DNA of 64,000 bases, from assembly GCF_009931435.1 (NCBI RefSeq), contig NZ_CP043414.1; one strand, 5' to 3'. The position numbers and the translations under genes are program-made. The DNA is from Escherichia coli (GTDB taxonomy: Bacteria > Pseudomonadota > Gammaproteobacteria > Enterobacterales > Enterobacteriaceae). The notes beneath the pieces are model-generated. The model was not told where the DNA came from and did no database searches. It worked only from the letters and a program-made list of their open reading frames with translations. Of the stretch, positions 8,693 to 33,025 are shown piece after piece. How positions within the stretch are numbered: the first letter of the stretch is position 1; every line of letters begins with the position of its first letter.

Positions 8693-9804
8693 TGTGCAGC
8701 TCCTGGTTTGGCCTCACCAATCACCACTTCATCGCCCGCTTCCAGCCCTTTGACAATCTCAACATCGGTGTCGTTACGTGCACCAATCGTCACTTCACGC
8801 TCGCGTGTTTCACCATTACGCAACAATTTGACTTTATAACGATTATCGCCAACCGGATCGCCTAACGCCGACAGAGGGATCGTCAGCACATTTTTCACAT
8901 CGGTGAGCTGAATATGCACTTGCGCGGTCATATCCAGCCGCAGCAAACCATTGGGGTTGGGTACTTCAAAACGGGCGTAATAGAAAATAGCGTCGTTAAC
9001 CTTTTCCGGCGTCGGTAGCACATCCTTGATTTGCCCCTCATAGCGCGTCAGCGGATCGCCAAGCACCGTAAACCAGGCTTTTTGCCCCGGCTTCAGGTGG
9101 ATTACATCCGCTTCAGAAACCTGCGCTTTTACCAGCATGGTGCTCATATCTGCCAGCGTCAGAATGTTCGGTGCTTGTTGTGCGGCAATCACCGTCTGGC
9201 CTTGCAGAGTGGTGATTTGCGTGACTTCCCCGGCCATCGGGGCAACGATGCGGGTGTAATCGAGATTGGTTTTAGCCGTATCGAGTGAGGCCTGATTACG
9301 CTTGATTTGCGCGTCAATGGTGCCAATTTGCGCCTGTTTCACAGCCATCTCCGTCGCGGCGGTATCGAGATCCTGCTGTGAAACCGCCTGCGTTTGTGCA
9401 AGACGTTGCTGACGGGAATACGTCACCCGCGCCAGTTTCAGCTCCGCTTCCGCCTGCTGCCGCTGCGCGCGTAGCTCCATCAGCGTTGCTTCCACCTCCT
9501 TGATCTGGTTTTCAGCTTGTTCAGGATCAATAACCCCTAAAAGCTGGTCTTTTTTTACTTTATCGCCAATCGCCACCGACAGCGTTTTCAACTGACCGCT
9601 GACCTGCGCGCCCACATCAACCTTACGCAGCGCGTCCAGCTTTCCGGTCGCCAGCACGCTTTGCTGTAAATCACCGGGGCGCACAATCAGCGTCTGATAA
9701 GTCGGCACGGGTGCGTTAAGAATTCTCCATAACGTAATCAGCCCGGCAATGACTATCACCAGCGCAATAACGTAACGCTTCTTCACGGTTTTCCGCTTTT
9801 TCAT
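8689..9804 (-). CDS. macA: macrolide efflux membrane fusion protein MacA
   Basis: 371-aa product from ATG 9804 ([16 protein letters not shown]...), HlyD-type periplasmic adaptor with coiled coil. Confidence 0.9.
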
Positions 9805-9918
9805 AAATATTCTGAATACTCCATATGCCAATCCGGGTCATTAACTTCAACGAAATATCAACAAAACCCTAAAATTTACGTTAGTAATCACACTATTGAT
9901 GTTTGGTTAAGATACGCC

Positions 9919-10911
9919 ATGGTGAAATCGACGTTATGTACAACCATTGATTTCATGAATATGTCGCAGCTAACTGAACGGACCTTTACGCCATCTGAAT
10001 CTCTCAGCAGCCTGTCACTTTTTCTTAGTCTGGCACGTGGACAGTGTCGGCCGGGTAAATTTTGGCATCGCCGTAGTTTTCGCCAGAAATTTTTGCTGCG
10101 CTCGTTGATTATGCCGCGTTTAAGCGTTGAGTGGATGAACGAACTTTCCCACTGGCCGAATCTCCATGTGTTGTTAACGCGCCAGCCGCGACTGCCTGTG
10201 CGTCTGCATCGCCCTTACCTTGCGGCGAATCTTAGCCGCAAGCAATTGCTGGAGGCGTTACGTTACCATTATGCATTGCTTCGTGCCTGCATGTCGGCAG
10301 AAGAATTCAGCTTATATTTGAATACTCCCGGGCTGCAACTGGCGAAGCTGGAAGGCAAAAACGGCGAGCAGTTCACACTTGAGCTGACCATGATGATCTC
10401 AATGGATAAAGAAGGTGACAGCACAATCCTGTTCCGCAACAGCGAAGGTATTCCTCTGGCAGAGATCACCTTTACTCTGTGTGAATACCAGGGGAAAAGA
10501 ACAATGTTTATTGGCGGGCTGCAAGGTGCGAAATGGGAAATTCCACATCAGGAAATCCAGAATGCGACGAAAGCCTGCCACGGGCTATTTCCCAAACGTC
10601 TCGTGATGGAAGCGGCCTGTCTGTTTGCCCAACGTTTGCAGGTAGAGCAGATCATTGCCGTCAGCAATGAAACACATATTTACCGCAGCCTGCGTTATCG
10701 CGATAAAGAAGGCAAGATCCATGCTGATTACAACGCGTTCTGGGAGTCGGTTGGCGGCGTATGTGATGCTGAACGCCATTACCGCCTTCCGGCACAGATA
10801 GCACGAAAAGAGATTGCCGAAATCGCCAGTAAAAAACGGGCTGAATACCGTCGGCGCTATGAGATGCTCGACGCTATTCAGCCACAAATGGCCACGATGT
10901 TTCGCGGTTAA
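9919..10911 (+). CDS. ybjX: YbjX (VirK/DUF535 family) protein
   Basis: 330-aa ORF with ATG at 9919; identity by recalled sequence and synteny next to macA. Confidence 0.8.
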   Translation: MVKSTLCTTIDFMNMSQLTERTFTPSESLSSLSLFLSLARGQCRPGKFWHRRSFRQKFLLRSLIMPRLSVEWMNELSHWPNLHVLLTRQPRLPVRLHRPYLAANLSRKQLLEALRYHYALLRACMSAEEFSLYLNTPGLQLAKLEGKNGEQFTLELTMMISMDKEGDSTILFRNSEGIPLAEITFTLCEYQGKRTMFIGGLQGAKWEIPHQEIQNATKACHGLFPKRLVMEAACLFAQRLQVEQIIAVSNETHIYRSLRYRDKEGKIHADYNAFWESVGGVCDAERHYRLPAQIARKEIAEIASKKRAEYRRRYEMLDAIQPQMATMFRG

Positions 10912-12566
10912 TCCGCGCGACCGCGCGCCAGCCACAGCACGCGTGAGAACATTTTTTTCAGCAGCGTCGGTACGGAGTCCACACCACGACGGCCGGCCTC
11001 CATTGCCACTTCAATGGCAAGATCGGGTTTGGAAGAGCGATGGATCGCTTTCGAGATAATTTTACGCAGATTCATCGGCACATTTTCCGGGATCTGCGCC
11101 ACGCGGTGGAACACATCGGAAAATCCCTGGCGATACATAAAATGTTCCATATCCAGCGCCGGTAACGCCGTTAAATGTTCTCGTTCGGCTTCCCGATCGT
11201 TATTCAACAGGCTGCGTACCGTAGCGGCATACTTCTTCCCGGCTTCATCGCCATCGACCAGCACATGCCATTCAATCCCCATTCGACGGGCGAATTTAAC
11301 CAGTGGCTTTAGCCCGGACTGGGCAAACTCAATGACCTTGATCCCTTCGGCATCAAAATGATGTCCACACTGACGCGCCAGTTCATTGATAACCCAGGTT
11401 TCCGTTTCGCCTTCCACCAGCAGCCAGCAGCGAGCAAACAGCGATGACGGACGGTTAAAACGAATGTGGAAAGAGATACGTCGGCTATCTTCGGTACTCA
11501 AGCCACTCGGCCCCAGACGCCAGGCGGCAACGCGAGAGGACTCACGTACCAGTCGGCAAACATGCTCTACCGGCGTTAACGAAAGCAGCTCGCCAGAGTT
11601 GGTGGTGGCAATGCGCTGCAATGGCAGAAGATTCAACAGATGCCAGGCAACTGAAAGCATAATGGGGTGTAAACGCGTTTCTGGATCTTCAATCAGCAAT
11701 AATGGACGTGCGTCTTTATCCAGCCGCAATGTGCCTTTTGCCTGCAATAAAGTAGCAAACAGGCCGAGCAAAATAACCCGATACGAGCGCCCTCCAGGCC
11801 GGTCAATCATCCGGTTGATGATATCCAGATAGCGCCAGCTTCGTTGCTCATTACTGGCCCGCCGCCGCATTAAACGATATCGCGCTTGTCCGGCCCCCTG
11901 CTCAGAGAAATAATGCTCAAGCAGCTGCACCATTGCGGAAAGTCCCTGACGAATCTGTCCATCAGAGAGATTTTGCGGATGTGAGGATAATTCACGGGCG
12001 AGGAAATCGAGTTGGCGCGCGGTGACTTCCACATTAGGGACATTTGGCACCGTGCCGTTACGAATACGGCGCATAAAACGGGCATCACGCAAGCGCAGCA
12101 CCGGCATTAAACGCACCAGATGGCGTGCCTGATCGTTAATATCCTCGACATCAATCGGATGTCCGTCTTTATCGAGAAAACTGCGGAGTGTCATCACACT
12201 GCCATCTTCCGCACTCTCCCCTTCCAGGCGATAAAAAATTCGATGATAACCATCGGTGCATGGCGTCCAGCATGCTTCCAACGGTCGATAGCGGCGTACC
12301 CGATGACGGCCTGGCAGCGATTCGCGGAAGGTCAAAATAATATGCAGATGATGTTCCCGCCCGTTGATATCTCCCGGCGGAAACCAGAAATCGTCGCGCT
12401 CAAAATGGTAGAGATCTGATTCTGGCGATAGCAGCAGGGTTAAGGCGTCCAGCAAGCTGGATTTACCCCACGCGTTCTCCCCAATCAGGACGTTGTTTTG
12501 TTCCAGCATCAACGATAAACGGTTGATACCGCGAAAACCCACAATTTCAACGCGCTCAAGAATCAT
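10908..12566 (-). CDS. ybjD: OLD-family ATPase/TOPRIM nuclease YbjD
   Basis: 552 aa; N-terminal Walker A GENAWGKSS; C-terminal TOPRIM-like motifs LLVEGETE and VLVDGDEAG. Confidence 0.85.
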   Translation of the reverse strand: MILERVEIVGFRGINRLSLMLEQNNVLIGENAWGKSSLLDALTLLLSPESDLYHFERDDFWFPPGDINGREHHLHIILTFRESLPGRHRVRRYRPLEACWTPCTDGYHRIFYRLEGESAEDGSVMTLRSFLDKDGHPIDVEDINDQARHLVRLMPVLRLRDARFMRRIRNGTVPNVPNVEVTARQLDFLARELSSHPQNLSDGQIRQGLSAMVQLLEHYFSEQGAGQARYRLMRRRASNEQRSWRYLDIINRMIDRPGGRSYRVILLGLFATLLQAKGTLRLDKDARPLLLIEDPETRLHPIMLSVAWHLLNLLPLQRIATTNSGELLSLTPVEHVCRLVRESSRVAAWRLGPSGLSTEDSRRISFHIRFNRPSSLFARCWLLVEGETETWVINELARQCGHHFDAEGIKVIEFAQSGLKPLVKFARRMGIEWHVLVDGDEAGKKYAATVRSLLNNDREAEREHLTALPALDMEHFMYRQGFSDVFHRVAQIPENVPMNLRKIISKAIHRSSKPDLAIEVAMEAGRRGVDSVPTLLKKMFSRVLWLARGRAD

Positions 12567-12991
12567 ATCCCCTCCAGAAATATGTGACTTATCCTTTACG
12601 CTGGCAGTATAACGGGAAAGGCCGTGCTAATACGTGATGACATCACATTTAAGCATGGCAAATGTCTGAAAAATGAGCGAATAATCGCGTTATACTCCCT
12701 CTTGCTGATAAGTCTGCAAAAACAACAAAATCAAATAATTAGCATGATAAATTATTTTTTATTACGCCTAAAGGATTAAATCTTTTGCTTGCACTACACT
12801 GTCAATCAGACAAATGACTATATGGGGCAACCCGCTGTTGCCCTAAATCAAATTTACTGGATTTATTTATCTGGTGAATGACTCGCCTTCGTTTTTAAAA
12901 TAGCCGCGCATTATTTCCGTCGTCACTTTTTTACGACGACCCTATAAAACGACCATATTTTTCACAGGGTCAATTTTTAATTGAGGTGGAT

Positions 12992-13687
12992 ATGTTCAGA
13001 AAATTAGCAGCTGAATGTTTTGGTACTTTCTGGCTTGTTTTTGGTGGCTGTGGTAGTGCCGTACTGGCCGCAGGCTTCCCGGAATTAGGCATTGGTTTTG
13101 CCGGCGTGGCGCTGGCATTCGGTTTAACCGTTCTGACGATGGCCTTCGCTGTTGGTCATATTTCTGGTGGTCATTTTAACCCGGCGGTCACTATTGGCTT
13201 ATGGGCTGGCGGACGTTTTCCGGCAAAAGAAGTCGTTGGCTACGTAATTGCCCAGGTTGTCGGCGGTATTGTTGCAGCGGCGCTGCTGTATTTAATTGCC
13301 AGTGGTAAAACGGGATTTGACGCGGCAGCCAGCGGTTTTGCTTCTAACGGTTATGGCGAGCATTCACCAGGCGGTTATTCCATGCTTTCCGCGCTGGTAG
13401 TTGAACTGGTATTGAGTGCAGGTTTCTTGCTGGTGATCCACGGCGCAACCGACAAATTCGCTCCGGCGGGTTTTGCGCCAATTGCCATTGGTCTGGCATT
13501 AACGCTGATTCACTTAATCAGTATTCCGGTGACTAACACTTCCGTTAACCCGGCGCGCAGTACTGCGGTTGCCATCTTCCAGGGCGGCTGGGCGTTAGAA
13601 CAACTGTGGTTCTTCTGGGTGGTGCCAATTGTCGGCGGCATTATCGGTGGTCTGATTTACCGGACTCTGCTGGAAAAGCGTAATTAA
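12992..13687 (+). CDS. aqpZ: aquaporin Z
   Basis: 231-aa product from ATG 12992 preceded by GAGGTGGA; two NPA boxes ([14 protein letters not shown]). Confidence 0.93.
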
Positions 13688-31859: not shown

Positions 31860-32985
31860 ATTGCTTCACCAACAGTGTCAGCACTTCATAGTGCGCGGTG
31901 TGCGGGAACATATCAAAAAGCTGTACCCGTTCAATACGATAACCTGACAGTTCGCGGATATCTTTGGCCATCGTTTGGGCGTTACAGCTGGAGTAGATGA
32001 TAAAACGCGGAGCCATCGTTGAAAGATAATCACACAGCGGTTTACCAATACCTCGGCGCGGCGGGTTAACCAGCACCAGCTCCGGCACCTCTCCCTGAGT
32101 GGTGACAAACTGAGTGGAGTCCAGCGCCTGAAATTGCAAACGCGTTAAGCCCAGTTCAGCAGCTGACTGCTTCGCACAGGCAATGGCCTCTGGCGCAATT
32201 TCGATCCCGGTTAACTGCATGTCAGGCGTCGCGCAGTGTAAACCAAAGCCGCCCACGCCACAGAACAGATCCCACATATGTTTAACCGGCAACTGTCGTA
32301 CCCAGTCGCGCGCAGTAGCGTACAGCTGGCTGGCGACTACCGGATTAGTCTGGAAGAAACTTTGTGGACGGATCCACAGCGGCACATCGTTAAAACGCTC
32401 AGCCAGCGCCTGTTGTTCGCTCAGATAAATCTCCGTCTCCCCTTCCATAATCGCCATATGTATCGGCTGAATATTGGCGGTAATGACTTTCAGCTGCGGC
32501 AGTTGTTCCTGTAACCACGGCAGCGCCTTACGCAGTTGTGCCAGCTTGGTTTCGGAACGCAGTACAAAGCGCAACATCATGCCACCATCACTTTGGCTTT
32601 CAGTCAGCAGAATGTATTTCAGTTCGCCACGCTTACGCGCCACATTGTAGGGGGTTAGCCCCGCACGGGCGATAAACGGTTTTAACGCCGCAAAAACGGG
32701 CGCAAATGAGGAGGGATAAAGCGGACAATCGCAAAGGTCTTCTGGTGTGCCGTCGCGATGCAGCATACCGAGCAGTGGTTTTTCAACGCTACCACTCACC
32801 ACCATTTTGGCTTTATTACGAAACCCTTGCTCCGGGCCTGACACCGGCTCGCACCATTCCTCAACCGAAAAGTCGGCGAGCAGATTTTTAAGATCGGCGG
32901 TTTTAGCGGAGAGTTGCTCTGGAATCAGCTGCGTTATCCACTGACAGGAACGACAGCGACCCGCGTCGTAAAGTGCGCACTGCAT
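31858..32985 (-). CDS. rlmC: 23S rRNA (uracil747-C5)-methyltransferase RlmC
   Basis: 375 aa; N-terminal Cys cluster [14 protein letters not shown]; SAM-dependent methyltransferase body. Confidence 0.9.
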
Positions 32986-33025
32986 ACATTGACCTTCACA
33001 TCATCAGGGGCGACGATTATACACA

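Follow-up and report, generated by a model that had tools for sequence, protein, structure and literature searches.

YbjD (OldB) of Escherichia coli, a stand-alone OLD-family ATPase-nuclease encoded in the core genome

Introduction

YbjD of Escherichia coli served as the query by which the OLD family was defined, and was itself placed in Class 1 (PMC6755086; Schiltz, 2019). The gene was recently renamed oldB in a study that combined phage challenge, deletion and mutants (PMC13261556; Atahualpa, 2026). The gene is expressed, its transcript having been detected; the deletion is viable, with no growth defect reported, ybjD being dispensable in laboratory culture, and at native expression it caused no change over 68 BASEL phages. 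Overexpression was toxic, lowered the plaquing of Bas18 and Bas20 and made the plaques of T7-like phages smaller. The anti-phage effect was kept upon deletion of the Toprim domain, lost upon deletion of the ATPase domain, and kept in the K35A mutant, the toxicity of which was greater. YbjD did not kill the recBC(ts) strain that is killed by P2 Old (PMC13261556). The phage challenge with deletion and overexpression strains, which the first-pass annotation of the DNA considered here had proposed as a check, has been run in that study, with an effect of overexpression and none of deletion.

A literature search on DUF2813, b0876 and oldB yielded nothing further. In papers on translesion synthesis and gap repair the aqpZ-ybjD spacer is merely an integration site, in those on SGI1 the label "ybjD" is applied to a helicase-linked, Gabija-like gene, and two omics tables include ybjD with no follow-up.

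Here, we describe ybjD as found in a window of 64,000 nucleotides (the whole stretch of E. coli DNA that was analysed, contig NZ_CP043414.1). The family assignment made at first pass is correct but had already been published, and no new entity is added. Our additions to the literature are the core position and vertical inheritance of the gene together with its dN/dS values, the conservation of the two-metal site set against the phenotype, and the Class 2-like C-terminus.

Results

Gene identity and neighbours

The open reading frame at positions 10908..12566 of the minus strand (ATG start, 552 amino acids and a stop codon) is ybjD (oldB), labelled in RefSeq as "ybjD: ATP-dependent endonuclease", and encodes a stand-alone ATPase-nuclease of the OLD family. 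The motifs on which the first-pass annotation had relied were all located in the protein, namely GENAWGKSS at residues 29-37, LLVEGETE at residues 382-389 and VLVDGDEAG at residues 435-443, and a chance match is excluded by the Pfam scores of DUF2813 (2e-160) and OLD-like_TOPRIM (4e-16). A Shine-Dalgarno sequence, GGAGG (12571..12575, minus strand), can be read 4 nt ahead of the ATG. This 552-residue start is preferred over the 525-residue variant P0002, because the N-terminal strand is conserved in the family alignment (L3, F11 and R12, at least 90%).

The adjoining ybjX, noted at first pass as VirK-like, was found to be a convergent gene of the VirK/YbjX family; the stop codons of ybjX (plus strand) and ybjD (minus strand) overlap in TTAA (10908..10911), and the pair appears as a convergent excludon in an RNA-seq list (PMC12288877). 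On the other side, aqpZ is divergent from ybjD and lies 419 bp upstream. The intergenic region between them (12567..12985) is the presumed site of the ybjD promoter; a sigma-70 consensus scan of this spacer gave 0 matches, and no LexA-box-like CTGT-N8-ACAG was seen in it by eye. An Rfam search over positions 9800-13100 returned nothing.

Fold and ATPase domain

The OLD architecture proposed at first pass was recovered by Pfam, the family alignment, profile matching and an AlphaFold model (pLDDT 85.7, pTM 0.84), all of which place a Toprim domain C-terminal to an ATPase of the ABC type. The comparison of structures and profiles suggested there as a check found the OLD/Toprim fold in YbjD and a likeness to solved OLD proteins over the whole protein: the family profile matched the Thermus scotoductus OLD (Ts OLD, PDB 6P74) at 2.3e-21, spanning residues 2-442, and GajA at about 1e-19, and the PADLOC models of GajA and Old also matched YbjD.

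Alignment and model together show the N-terminal part as a predicted Rad50/SMC-like ABC ATPase, with K35, E293, H300 and an Asn in the H-loop. The Walker A motif, or P-loop, G29-E-N-A-W-G-K35-S36 (12459..12482, minus strand) fits the pattern GxxxxGK[ST] and is well conserved in 95 family representatives (G29 97%, G34 96%, K35 85% with Arg in 10%). The Walker B motif and D-loop occupy residues 289-301, LLLIEDPETRLHP (11664..11702, minus strand), in which E293 (86% conserved, Asp in 9%) and H300 (98%) are aligned by profile to E276 and H283 of Ts OLD, residues with published roles. In the H-loop T-T-N-S (residues 321-324; 11595..11606, minus strand) Asn323 stands at the usual position of His. 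It was considered as a new feature and rejected, as the position is variable across the family (N 57%, H 18%, Q 14%, Y 8%) and the replacement of His by Asn had already been noted for Class 1 OLDs (Schiltz, 2020).

A helical insertion interrupts the ATPase domain at residues ~161-280 (11727..12086, minus strand), where four helices (180-195, 202-220, 238-255 and 260-277) are modelled between two ATPase strands. Ts OLD has a four-helix dimerisation domain at the same position within its ATPase, and the insertion appears to be its counterpart; the helices are placed as in OLD proteins, but pLDDT falls below 50 at residues 163-179 and 222-241. This insertion is the least conserved segment of YbjD (0.31 in the family alignment).

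Toprim nuclease site and C-terminal region

According to alignment and model, the C-terminal part is a predicted Toprim nuclease in which both metal sites are complete, and the helical region beyond it carries the invariant lysine K513. The Toprim core (residues 376-475; 11142..11441, minus strand) includes the match to Pfam PF20469 (4e-16, over residues 376-440), and no other segment of YbjD is as well conserved (0.73 vs 0.31-0.53 elsewhere). The predicted ligands are E385, D438 and D440 for metal A and E389, D472 and E474 for metal B. In 72-95 representatives drawn from clusters at 50% identity, E385, D440, E389 and E474 are invariant, while D438 (99%), D472 (95%) and K513 (99%) are nearly so. 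The ligands map to E377/D431/D433 and D381/S478/E480 of Ts OLD and fit the E379/E383/D432/D434/D511/D513 pattern of GajA; the equivalences of metal B to Ts OLD D381/S478/E480 and of K513 to K562 of the Burkholderia pseudomallei OLD (Bp OLD) and K541 of GajA are drawn from alignment and spacing rather than coordinates.

Such a site could in principle act on RNA, for example tRNA, and not on DNA, YbjD then being either a translation shut-off enzyme triggered by stress or infection or an enzyme of RNA processing. P2 Old cleaves the anticodon arm of tRNA, AriB of PARIS is a Toprim tRNase, and RNase M5 is also a precedent; the full conservation of the two-metal site and the toxicity of overexpression would agree with such an activity. 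The sequence, however, gives no distinction of substrate, of the relatives with solved structures the closest (Ts OLD, GajA and Bp OLD) are DNA cutters, and the RecBC-linked killing by P2 Old is not reproduced by YbjD, so we regard an RNA-cutting YbjD as improbable.

Downstream of the core, the C-terminal helical region (residues 476-552; 10911..11141, minus strand) contains the invariant pair K513-P514, with K513 a candidate catalytic lysine lying inside the modelled helical tail (residues 500-549). In Class 1 proteins of the Ts type the C-terminus has no helical domain and a basic residue stands about 7 residues past the metal-B Glu; in YbjD the tail is helical, the residue at +7 is the invariant Gly481, and R479 is only 22% conserved. 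HMMs of the GajA type extend across the YbjD tail, and that of the P2-type Old ends at residue 473. By alignment and model, the C-terminal region thus resembles Class 2, or GajA, more closely than it resembles Ts OLD.

This resemblance would be expected if YbjD were an orphaned Gabija-type (Class 2) GajA that lost GajB in an ancestor of Enterobacterales and Vibrionales and was kept for another use. The best PADLOC models are GajA subfamilies (PDLC00094, 7e-80), aligned through the C-terminus, and residues 471-552 alone match a GajA model. K513 lies 39 residues past the metal-B Glu, as do its Class 2 counterparts, whereas the basic residue of Ts OLD (R487) and P2 Old (K550) sits 7 residues past it, and 164 residues superpose on the C-terminal region of the Class 2 Bp protein. 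On the other hand, the family profile ranks Ts OLD slightly over GajA, the PADLOC "GajA" models may themselves contain orphan proteins, and only 32 residues separate DxD from the metal-B motif, fewer than in the structures of either class, so that there is no large Toprim insert. Since, moreover, a helicase neighbour was found in 0 of about 90 contexts, descent from a two-gene Gabija system has a low probability in our view.

Core-genome status, synteny and selection

The core-backbone position indicated at first pass holds: 5424 of 5426 complete E. coli genomes carry one full-length copy of ybjD, the locus of which is fixed in Enterobacteriaceae and Yersinia. The order hcp-ybjE-aqpZ-ybjD-(ybjX)-macAB is kept in 80 Enterobacteriaceae species, and Yersinia carries the same block, with ybjX 137 bp away. 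Serratia, Proteus, Aeromonas, Vibrio and Salinivibrio have full-length orthologues with 42-65% identity. The neighbours of ybjD differ between orders; variable gene neighbourhoods have been described for Class 1 OLDs (PMC12796447). In Enterobacterales, common descent has kept the locus fixed, an unusual situation for a gene of the defence type. No full-length relative was found in phage genomes, in which the matches were P2 Old (28% identity) and a host-like fragment within a 2-kb record.

The gene has no partner, as had been stated at first pass. None was found at the 80 loci of Enterobacteriaceae or in the contexts examined from Yersinia, Vibrio and Salinivibrio, of Acidobacteriota type and from metagenomes, and no GajB or UvrD-like helicase stood beside ybjD or its relatives in the about 90 contexts examined. 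The distant contexts were drawn from a plasmid/chromid collection and from contigs encoding relatives; the scan of genome contigs with the YbjD protein as the query, rather than an alignment, retrieved only close Enterobacteriaceae relatives. As it lacks any conserved partner, such as a helicase or a reverse transcriptase, YbjD is stand-alone in the sense of Class 1. The possibility that ybjX is a hidden partner was considered and rejected, as it is missing from 16 of the 80 syntenic loci, its identity is 46-74% compared with 80-91% for ybjD, and its dN/dS is higher.

For ybjD, dN/dS was 0.009-0.016 within Escherichia and 0.03-0.07 between genera, equal to or below the values for macA, macB and aqpZ and 3-5 times below those for ybjX. 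Relative to a laboratory E. coli copy there are 57 nucleotide differences, of which 56 are synonymous and one causes the amino-acid change V489M. On this comparative evidence ybjD is a vertically inherited core gene under purifying selection of, as estimated, housekeeping level. The lack of a known deletion phenotype could be explained if ybjD were a relic, decaying or already inactive, that no longer has a function; however, the near-absence of non-synonymous change, the dN/dS of about 0.01, the full-length copies in 5424 genomes, the invariance of active-site residues in distant taxa and the detected transcript speak against decay. Judged by the selection data, a relic is effectively refuted and can be given next to no probability.

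Discussion

Our preferred reading, to which we assign a probability of about 0.6, is that YbjD is a dimeric, ATP-restrained nuclease of the core genome, selected for a cellular task, with phage restriction secondary at most. In chemical terms the protein would be a dimeric, nucleotide-gated, Mg/Ca-dependent nickase or nuclease, a prediction based on homology. The binding of ATP would restrain YbjD and not power it; we propose this because the K35A mutant is more toxic, the H-loop His is variable in the family, and GajA behaves in this way. The selected function would depend on the nuclease and lie in the metabolism of the cell's own nucleic acids or in a stress response, any phage restriction being at most secondary. 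A cellular role is proposed because ybjD is fixed in the core genome under housekeeping-level purifying selection, conservation is highest at its nuclease site, and the anti-phage effect is independent of Toprim and confined to overexpression. The native function thus probably uses the nuclease, and it may be other than phage defence; the archaeal OLD protein Cran1, which apparently has a non-defence role, provides a precedent. As the deletion is viable, any housekeeping role would be dispensable or redundant in the laboratory.

The principal competitor is that YbjD is primarily an anti-phage protein, a Class 1 OLD like that of Vibrio cholerae (Vc OLD) or P2 Old, which senses infection and then nicks or cuts, its fixation in the core genome being incidental. 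Membership in the OLD family, the GajA and Old models as the top matches in the defence library, the reduced plaquing of Bas18 and Bas20 and the shrunken T7-like plaques upon overexpression, and the example of Vc OLD, which shows that a stand-alone bacterial OLD can defend, are all in keeping with such a role. Deletion at the native level, however, is without effect on 68 phages, and the effect of overexpression outlasts both Toprim removal and K35A, whereas Vc OLD and P2 Old need both sites. In addition, a locus fixed across Enterobacterales, with no mobile or defence-island neighbours and with dN/dS of 0.01-0.07, is unlike accessory defence genes with their fast turnover, and counts of the DefenseFinder type place Class 1 OLDs in only 0.45% of genomes, from which it follows that the ubiquitous YbjD clade is apparently not counted as defence. 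We therefore consider a primarily anti-phage YbjD unlikely, if still a serious candidate. Against a cellular role it counts that almost every bacterial OLD protein characterised so far is anti-phage and that YbjD, when overexpressed, restricts some phages. Strictly, a conserved core gene could still have an immune role, and the 68 tested phages are a small sample of natural ones.

More tentatively, and with somewhat less than even confidence, the selected cellular task favoured above may be extended to the whole DUF2813 clade, which could consist of non-immune housekeeping or stress enzymes and form a bacterial counterpart of Cran1. Each would be a Toprim nickase, gated by ATP, with the DNA or RNA of the cell itself as its substrate, and the anti-phage effect would be incidental to overproduction of the ATPase domain. 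If true, this would set a ubiquitous, vertically inherited branch of OLD proteins apart from the defence branches.

The analysis sharpens a contradiction, as the nuclease site is the most conserved part of the protein, yet the sole known phenotype does not need it, and the core gene that carries this contradiction is common to Enterobacterales, Vibrionales and beyond. Its resolution would tell whether the OLD family has a bacterial housekeeping branch, and would provide a function for an E. coli gene that is among the last to be wholly uncharacterised.

Comparison with known systems

YbjD (OldB, b0876) of E. coli K-12 is the same gene with the same neighbours, aqpZ and ybjX, and differs from the gene of the window in host lineage only; at ybjD the window DNA shares 95-97% identity with most E. 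coli, and at another locus 90-95%. Ts OLD is the structural archetype of Class 1. Its H-loop contains His where YbjD has Asn323, its catalytic Arg lies 7 residues past the metal-B Glu where YbjD has an invariant Gly, and it has no C-terminal helical domain, whereas K513 of YbjD lies in a helical tail of roughly 75 residues.

The Class 2 proteins, GajA of the Bacillus cereus Gabija system and Bp OLD, are only 13-17% identical to YbjD, in which, unlike in them, no large insert separates the DxD motif from the metal-B motif. Unlike in Gabija, no GajB/UvrD-like helicase adjoins ybjD and the two-gene system is absent, so the scores of the PADLOC GajA models on YbjD (PDLC00094, 7e-80; PDLC00062, 8e-41; PDLC00070, 7e-38) express similarity only.

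P2 Old of bacteriophage P2 and Vc OLD are, like YbjD, single-gene OLDs, and their anti-phage activity has been shown; P2 Old has 28% identity to YbjD by tblastn across residues 252-440. Both need the ATPase and nuclease sites, whereas the YbjD phenotypes need neither Toprim nor K35; P2 Old kills recBC cells, whereas the YbjD phenotypes are RecBC-independent; and both are encoded on prophage or accessory DNA, whereas ybjD is a core gene. Finally, Cran1, the OLD-family ATPase-nickase of Saccharolobus islandicus, is archaeal and essential, is regulated with the cell cycle and carries a helical insert within Toprim, whereas YbjD is dispensable in laboratory culture; like YbjD, it is conserved within its lineage, keeps all catalytic residues and apparently serves a non-defence role.

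Genomic context and lineage

The gene ybjD (positions 10908-12566, minus strand; recently renamed oldB) is a single ORF coding for 552 aa, its ATG start being preceded in the window sequence by GGAGG. It contains all three motifs quoted in the first-pass annotation: GENAWGKSS (residues 29-37), LLVEGETE (382-389) and VLVDGDEAG (435-443). One flank comprises clpS, cspD, macB, macA and ybjX, the other aqpZ, ybjE/lysO, hcp, hcr and poxB; aqpZ is divergent from ybjD, 419 bp apart. The neighboring ybjX (9955-10911, plus strand) is convergent with ybjD, and the stop codons of the two genes overlap in TTAA (10908-10911); therefore, their transcripts must overlap, and the pair is given as a convergent excludon by ExcludonFinder. 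Up-regulation of ybjD, together with arn, mar, and evgS genes, was reported in uropathogenic E. coli given a cathelicidin peptide (PMC6737244); as ybjX is convergent and overlapping, this rise could reflect unstranded reads from ybjX read-through. RefSeq places the ybjX start 36 nt inside its ORF, counted from the first ATG.

Of the 5426 complete E. coli genomes compared, 5424 carry full-length ybjD, annotated as "ybjD: ATP-dependent endonuclease", at a median copy number of one. A single residue (V489M) separates the protein from its counterpart in a laboratory E. coli strain, although the genes differ by 57 nucleotides. Identity at ybjD reaches at least 99% in only one of the 5424 genomes and is 95-99% in the others (95-97% in the sampled ones). 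At positions 30000-33000 most genomes show 90-95% identity, and 95-99% is reached by only 19 records, the best at 98.6%. Compared over 12 kb, the nearest species representative is Escherichia sp. MOD1-EC7003 (95%). The source of the window is an Escherichia lineage uncommon in RefSeq and untypical of E. coli; the identity values at ybjD and at 30000-33000 suggest a cryptic-clade Escherichia. The latter region (rlmC-artJ-artM), as a 3-kb query, matches a median of 20 places per E. coli genome and hence includes a short dispersed repeat, most likely a REP/BIME one.

Inheritance and selection

The order hcp-ybjE-aqpZ-ybjD-(ybjX)-macA-macB is kept in 80 species-representative Enterobacteriaceae loci, and the Yersinia block reads poxB-hcr-hcp-lysO-ybjD-ybjX-macAB-cspD-clpSA. 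Of these 80 loci, 16 lack ybjX (Klebsiella, Raoultella, Superficieibacter, some Enterobacter); outside Escherichia, ybjX, where present, is 46-74% identical, compared with 80-91% for YbjD. Serratia, Proteus, Aeromonas, Vibrio, and Salinivibrio have full-length orthologs (42-65% identity), and remoter relatives extend to Acidobacteriota. In distant contexts (Vibrio, Salinivibrio, another gammaproteobacterium, an Acidobacteriota-type contig, and the metagenome contigs read) the gene stands among unrelated housekeeping genes, and no helicase or reverse transcriptase was found beside it there. The earlier description of a single gene with no partner thus holds from the Enterobacteriaceae loci and Yersinia to the distant contigs; the present analysis adds that ybjD is a vertically inherited core gene.

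Several peculiarities of these loci may be mentioned. In most ybjX-bearing Enterobacteriaceae ybjX and ybjD abut within about 0-30 nt, the distance in Yersinia being 137 bp. The aqpZ gene is missing or truncated in several of the species compared (loci L004, L022, L043, L045, L057, L064, L073, L075, L076), e.g., in Salmonella enterica subsp. diarizonae, Superficieibacter, and Escherichia sp. MOD1-EC7003, with ybjD intact in all. Locus L039 (CACSKA010000002.1), labelled Chryseobacterium sp. 18061, carries a complete Enterobacteriaceae hcp-ybjE-aqpZ-ybjD-ybjX-macAB block (YbjD 86% identical); this assembly is probably mislabelled or contaminated.

The gene is under strong purifying selection: dN/dS (Nei-Gojobori) of the window copy is 0.009-0.016 when compared with other Escherichia species and 0.03-0.07 with other genera. 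These values do not exceed those of macA, macB, and aqpZ, and are several-fold under that of ybjX. Constraint acts on both halves of the protein; at larger distances, non-synonymous change in the Toprim half amounts to about half of that in the ATPase half. Selection of this kind marks an ordinary core gene rather than an accessory one for defence.

Fold and conserved residues

YbjD has the domain architecture and fold of OLD-family ATPase/Toprim proteins with a complete set of catalytic residues. Pfam DUF2813 matches residues 1-375 (2e-160) and OLD-like_TOPRIM residues 376-440 (4e-16). The best defence-library matches are GajA models (down to 7e-80), the P2-type Old model matching at 2e-24. 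A single-sequence search matched solved structures weakly; a profile of 72 relatives matched Thermus scotoductus OLD (Ts OLD, 6P74; 2.3e-21, residues 2-442) and Bacillus cereus GajA (about 1e-19). The same alignment yielded a confident AlphaFold model (mean pLDDT 85.7, pTM 0.84), in which low confidence is confined to parts of the helical insertion 161-280. The profile matches and the model therefore confirm, by structural comparison with OLD proteins, the family proposed in the first-pass annotation.

Conservation was calculated from 95 full-length family representatives, one per 50%-identity cluster, by averaging the frequency of the most common residue over each segment. It is highest in the Toprim core (0.73), followed by the ATPase C-lobe (0.53), C-terminal tail (0.49), ATPase N-lobe (0.42), and helical insertion (0.31). 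The residues kept in all or nearly all sequences include E385, G386, E387, E389, D438, G439, D440, D472, E474, K513, and P514. The profile alignment pairs E385/D438/D440 with the metal-A ligands of Ts OLD (E377/D431/D433) and E389/D472/E474 with its metal-B ligands (D381/S478/E480); mutations of these Ts OLD residues cripple its cleavage. The GajA active site (E379/E383/D432/D434/D511/D513/K541) follows the same pattern as YbjD. Among the ATPase residues, conservation is 85% for K35 (replaced by Arg in 10%), 86% for E293 of Walker B, and 98% for H300 of the D-loop. YbjD carries Asn in the H-loop, at a position that varies across the family (N 57%, H 18%, Q 14%, Y 8%); this Asn-for-His replacement was rejected as a new feature, having already been noted (Schiltz 2020).

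Giant relatives of YbjD, 1050-1870 aa (P0149, P0162, P0163, P0165, P0175, P0196; locus L090, 2068-7671), carry Walker A right at the N-terminus, followed by an insertion of 200-600 aa, the rest of DUF2813, Toprim, and 400-1100 aa without a Pfam match; Anaerobiospirillum (Succinivibrionaceae) is the source of one such cluster (1187 aa). Placed inside an ABC head, the long insertion recalls Rad50/SMC coiled coils. A second group (590-670 aa) has a smaller insertion past about residue 50. Among phage sequences, phrog_4747 (PHROGs; function unknown) matches residues 233-538 (2.9e-116), and no full-length relative was found in the GenBank phage collection. A fragment of OR845570.1 ("Escherichia phage ECO95 1-6-1", 2060 bp), 91% identical to residues 1-98, looks like host DNA.

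Published phenotype and probable role

The gene is already named, classified, and partly characterized, so that the original observation, real and correctly read, is not novel. E. coli YbjD (b0876) served as the query with which the OLD family was assembled, and the E. coli and Salmonella genes were put in Class 1, i.e., single isolated genes (Schiltz et al., 2019; PMC6755086). The phage challenge suggested by the first-pass annotation is also available (Atahualpa et al., 2026; PMC13261556): ybjD is transcribed, and its Keio deletion left plating of 68 BASEL phages unchanged; arabinose-driven expression reduced plaquing of Bas18 and Bas20 and plaque size of T7-like phages. The effect was kept upon deletion of the Toprim domain, lost upon deletion of the ATPase domain, and retained in K35A, with higher toxicity. 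A recBC(ts) host was killed by P2 Old, but not by YbjD; the name oldB was proposed there. Our literature search found no nuclease assay of YbjD. What is added here is core-gene inheritance, dN/dS, the conservation map, and a mixed class assignment.

Dedicated phage defence would account for the reduced plaquing; however, the effect is seen on overexpression only and is independent of Toprim and K35, and the gene evolves like a housekeeping one, which makes this role distinctly less probable. We favor a role in the cell that depends on the nuclease (repair, recombination, chromosome maintenance, RNA processing, or stress response; roughly 55% jointly), because the published phenotype dispenses with the most conserved part of the family and ybjD evolves as a housekeeping gene. 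A precedent is Cran1, the OLD-family ATPase-nickase of Saccharolobus islandicus, which has a non-defence role. For specialists, the point is that the Toprim site is invariant, yet dispensable in the sole assay so far; this conflict, together with the core-genome behavior of the DUF2813 clade as a whole, allows a non-defence function to be tested.

Comparison with known OLD systems

As the most likely mechanism, YbjD would act as a dimeric ABC-type ATPase restrained in its nucleotide-bound state, similarly to GajA, in which ATP keeps the Toprim domain closed; its output would be that of a two-metal Toprim nickase or nuclease. Both DNA and RNA are possible substrates, as P2 Old and PARIS AriB cut tRNA.

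The class of YbjD is mixed: Class 1 by gene context, with a C-terminal region unlike the Class 1 structure. The catalytic basic residue of Ts OLD and P2 Old is 7 positions past the metal-B glutamate, whereas YbjD has an invariant glycine there. Ts OLD lacks a C-terminal helical domain, while the tail of the YbjD model forms three helices spanning 500-549. Invariant K513, a candidate catalytic lysine judging from the alignment, lies 39 residues downstream of the metal-B glutamate at a helix start, as in the Class 2 arrangement (K562 in Burkholderia pseudomallei OLD, K541 in GajA). GajA-type PADLOC models align through to the YbjD end, and residues 471-552 alone match one of them; the P2-type Old model ends at residue 473. 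On the other hand, the DxD-to-metal-B spacing is only 32 residues, hence YbjD has no large Toprim insert, which counts against Class 2.
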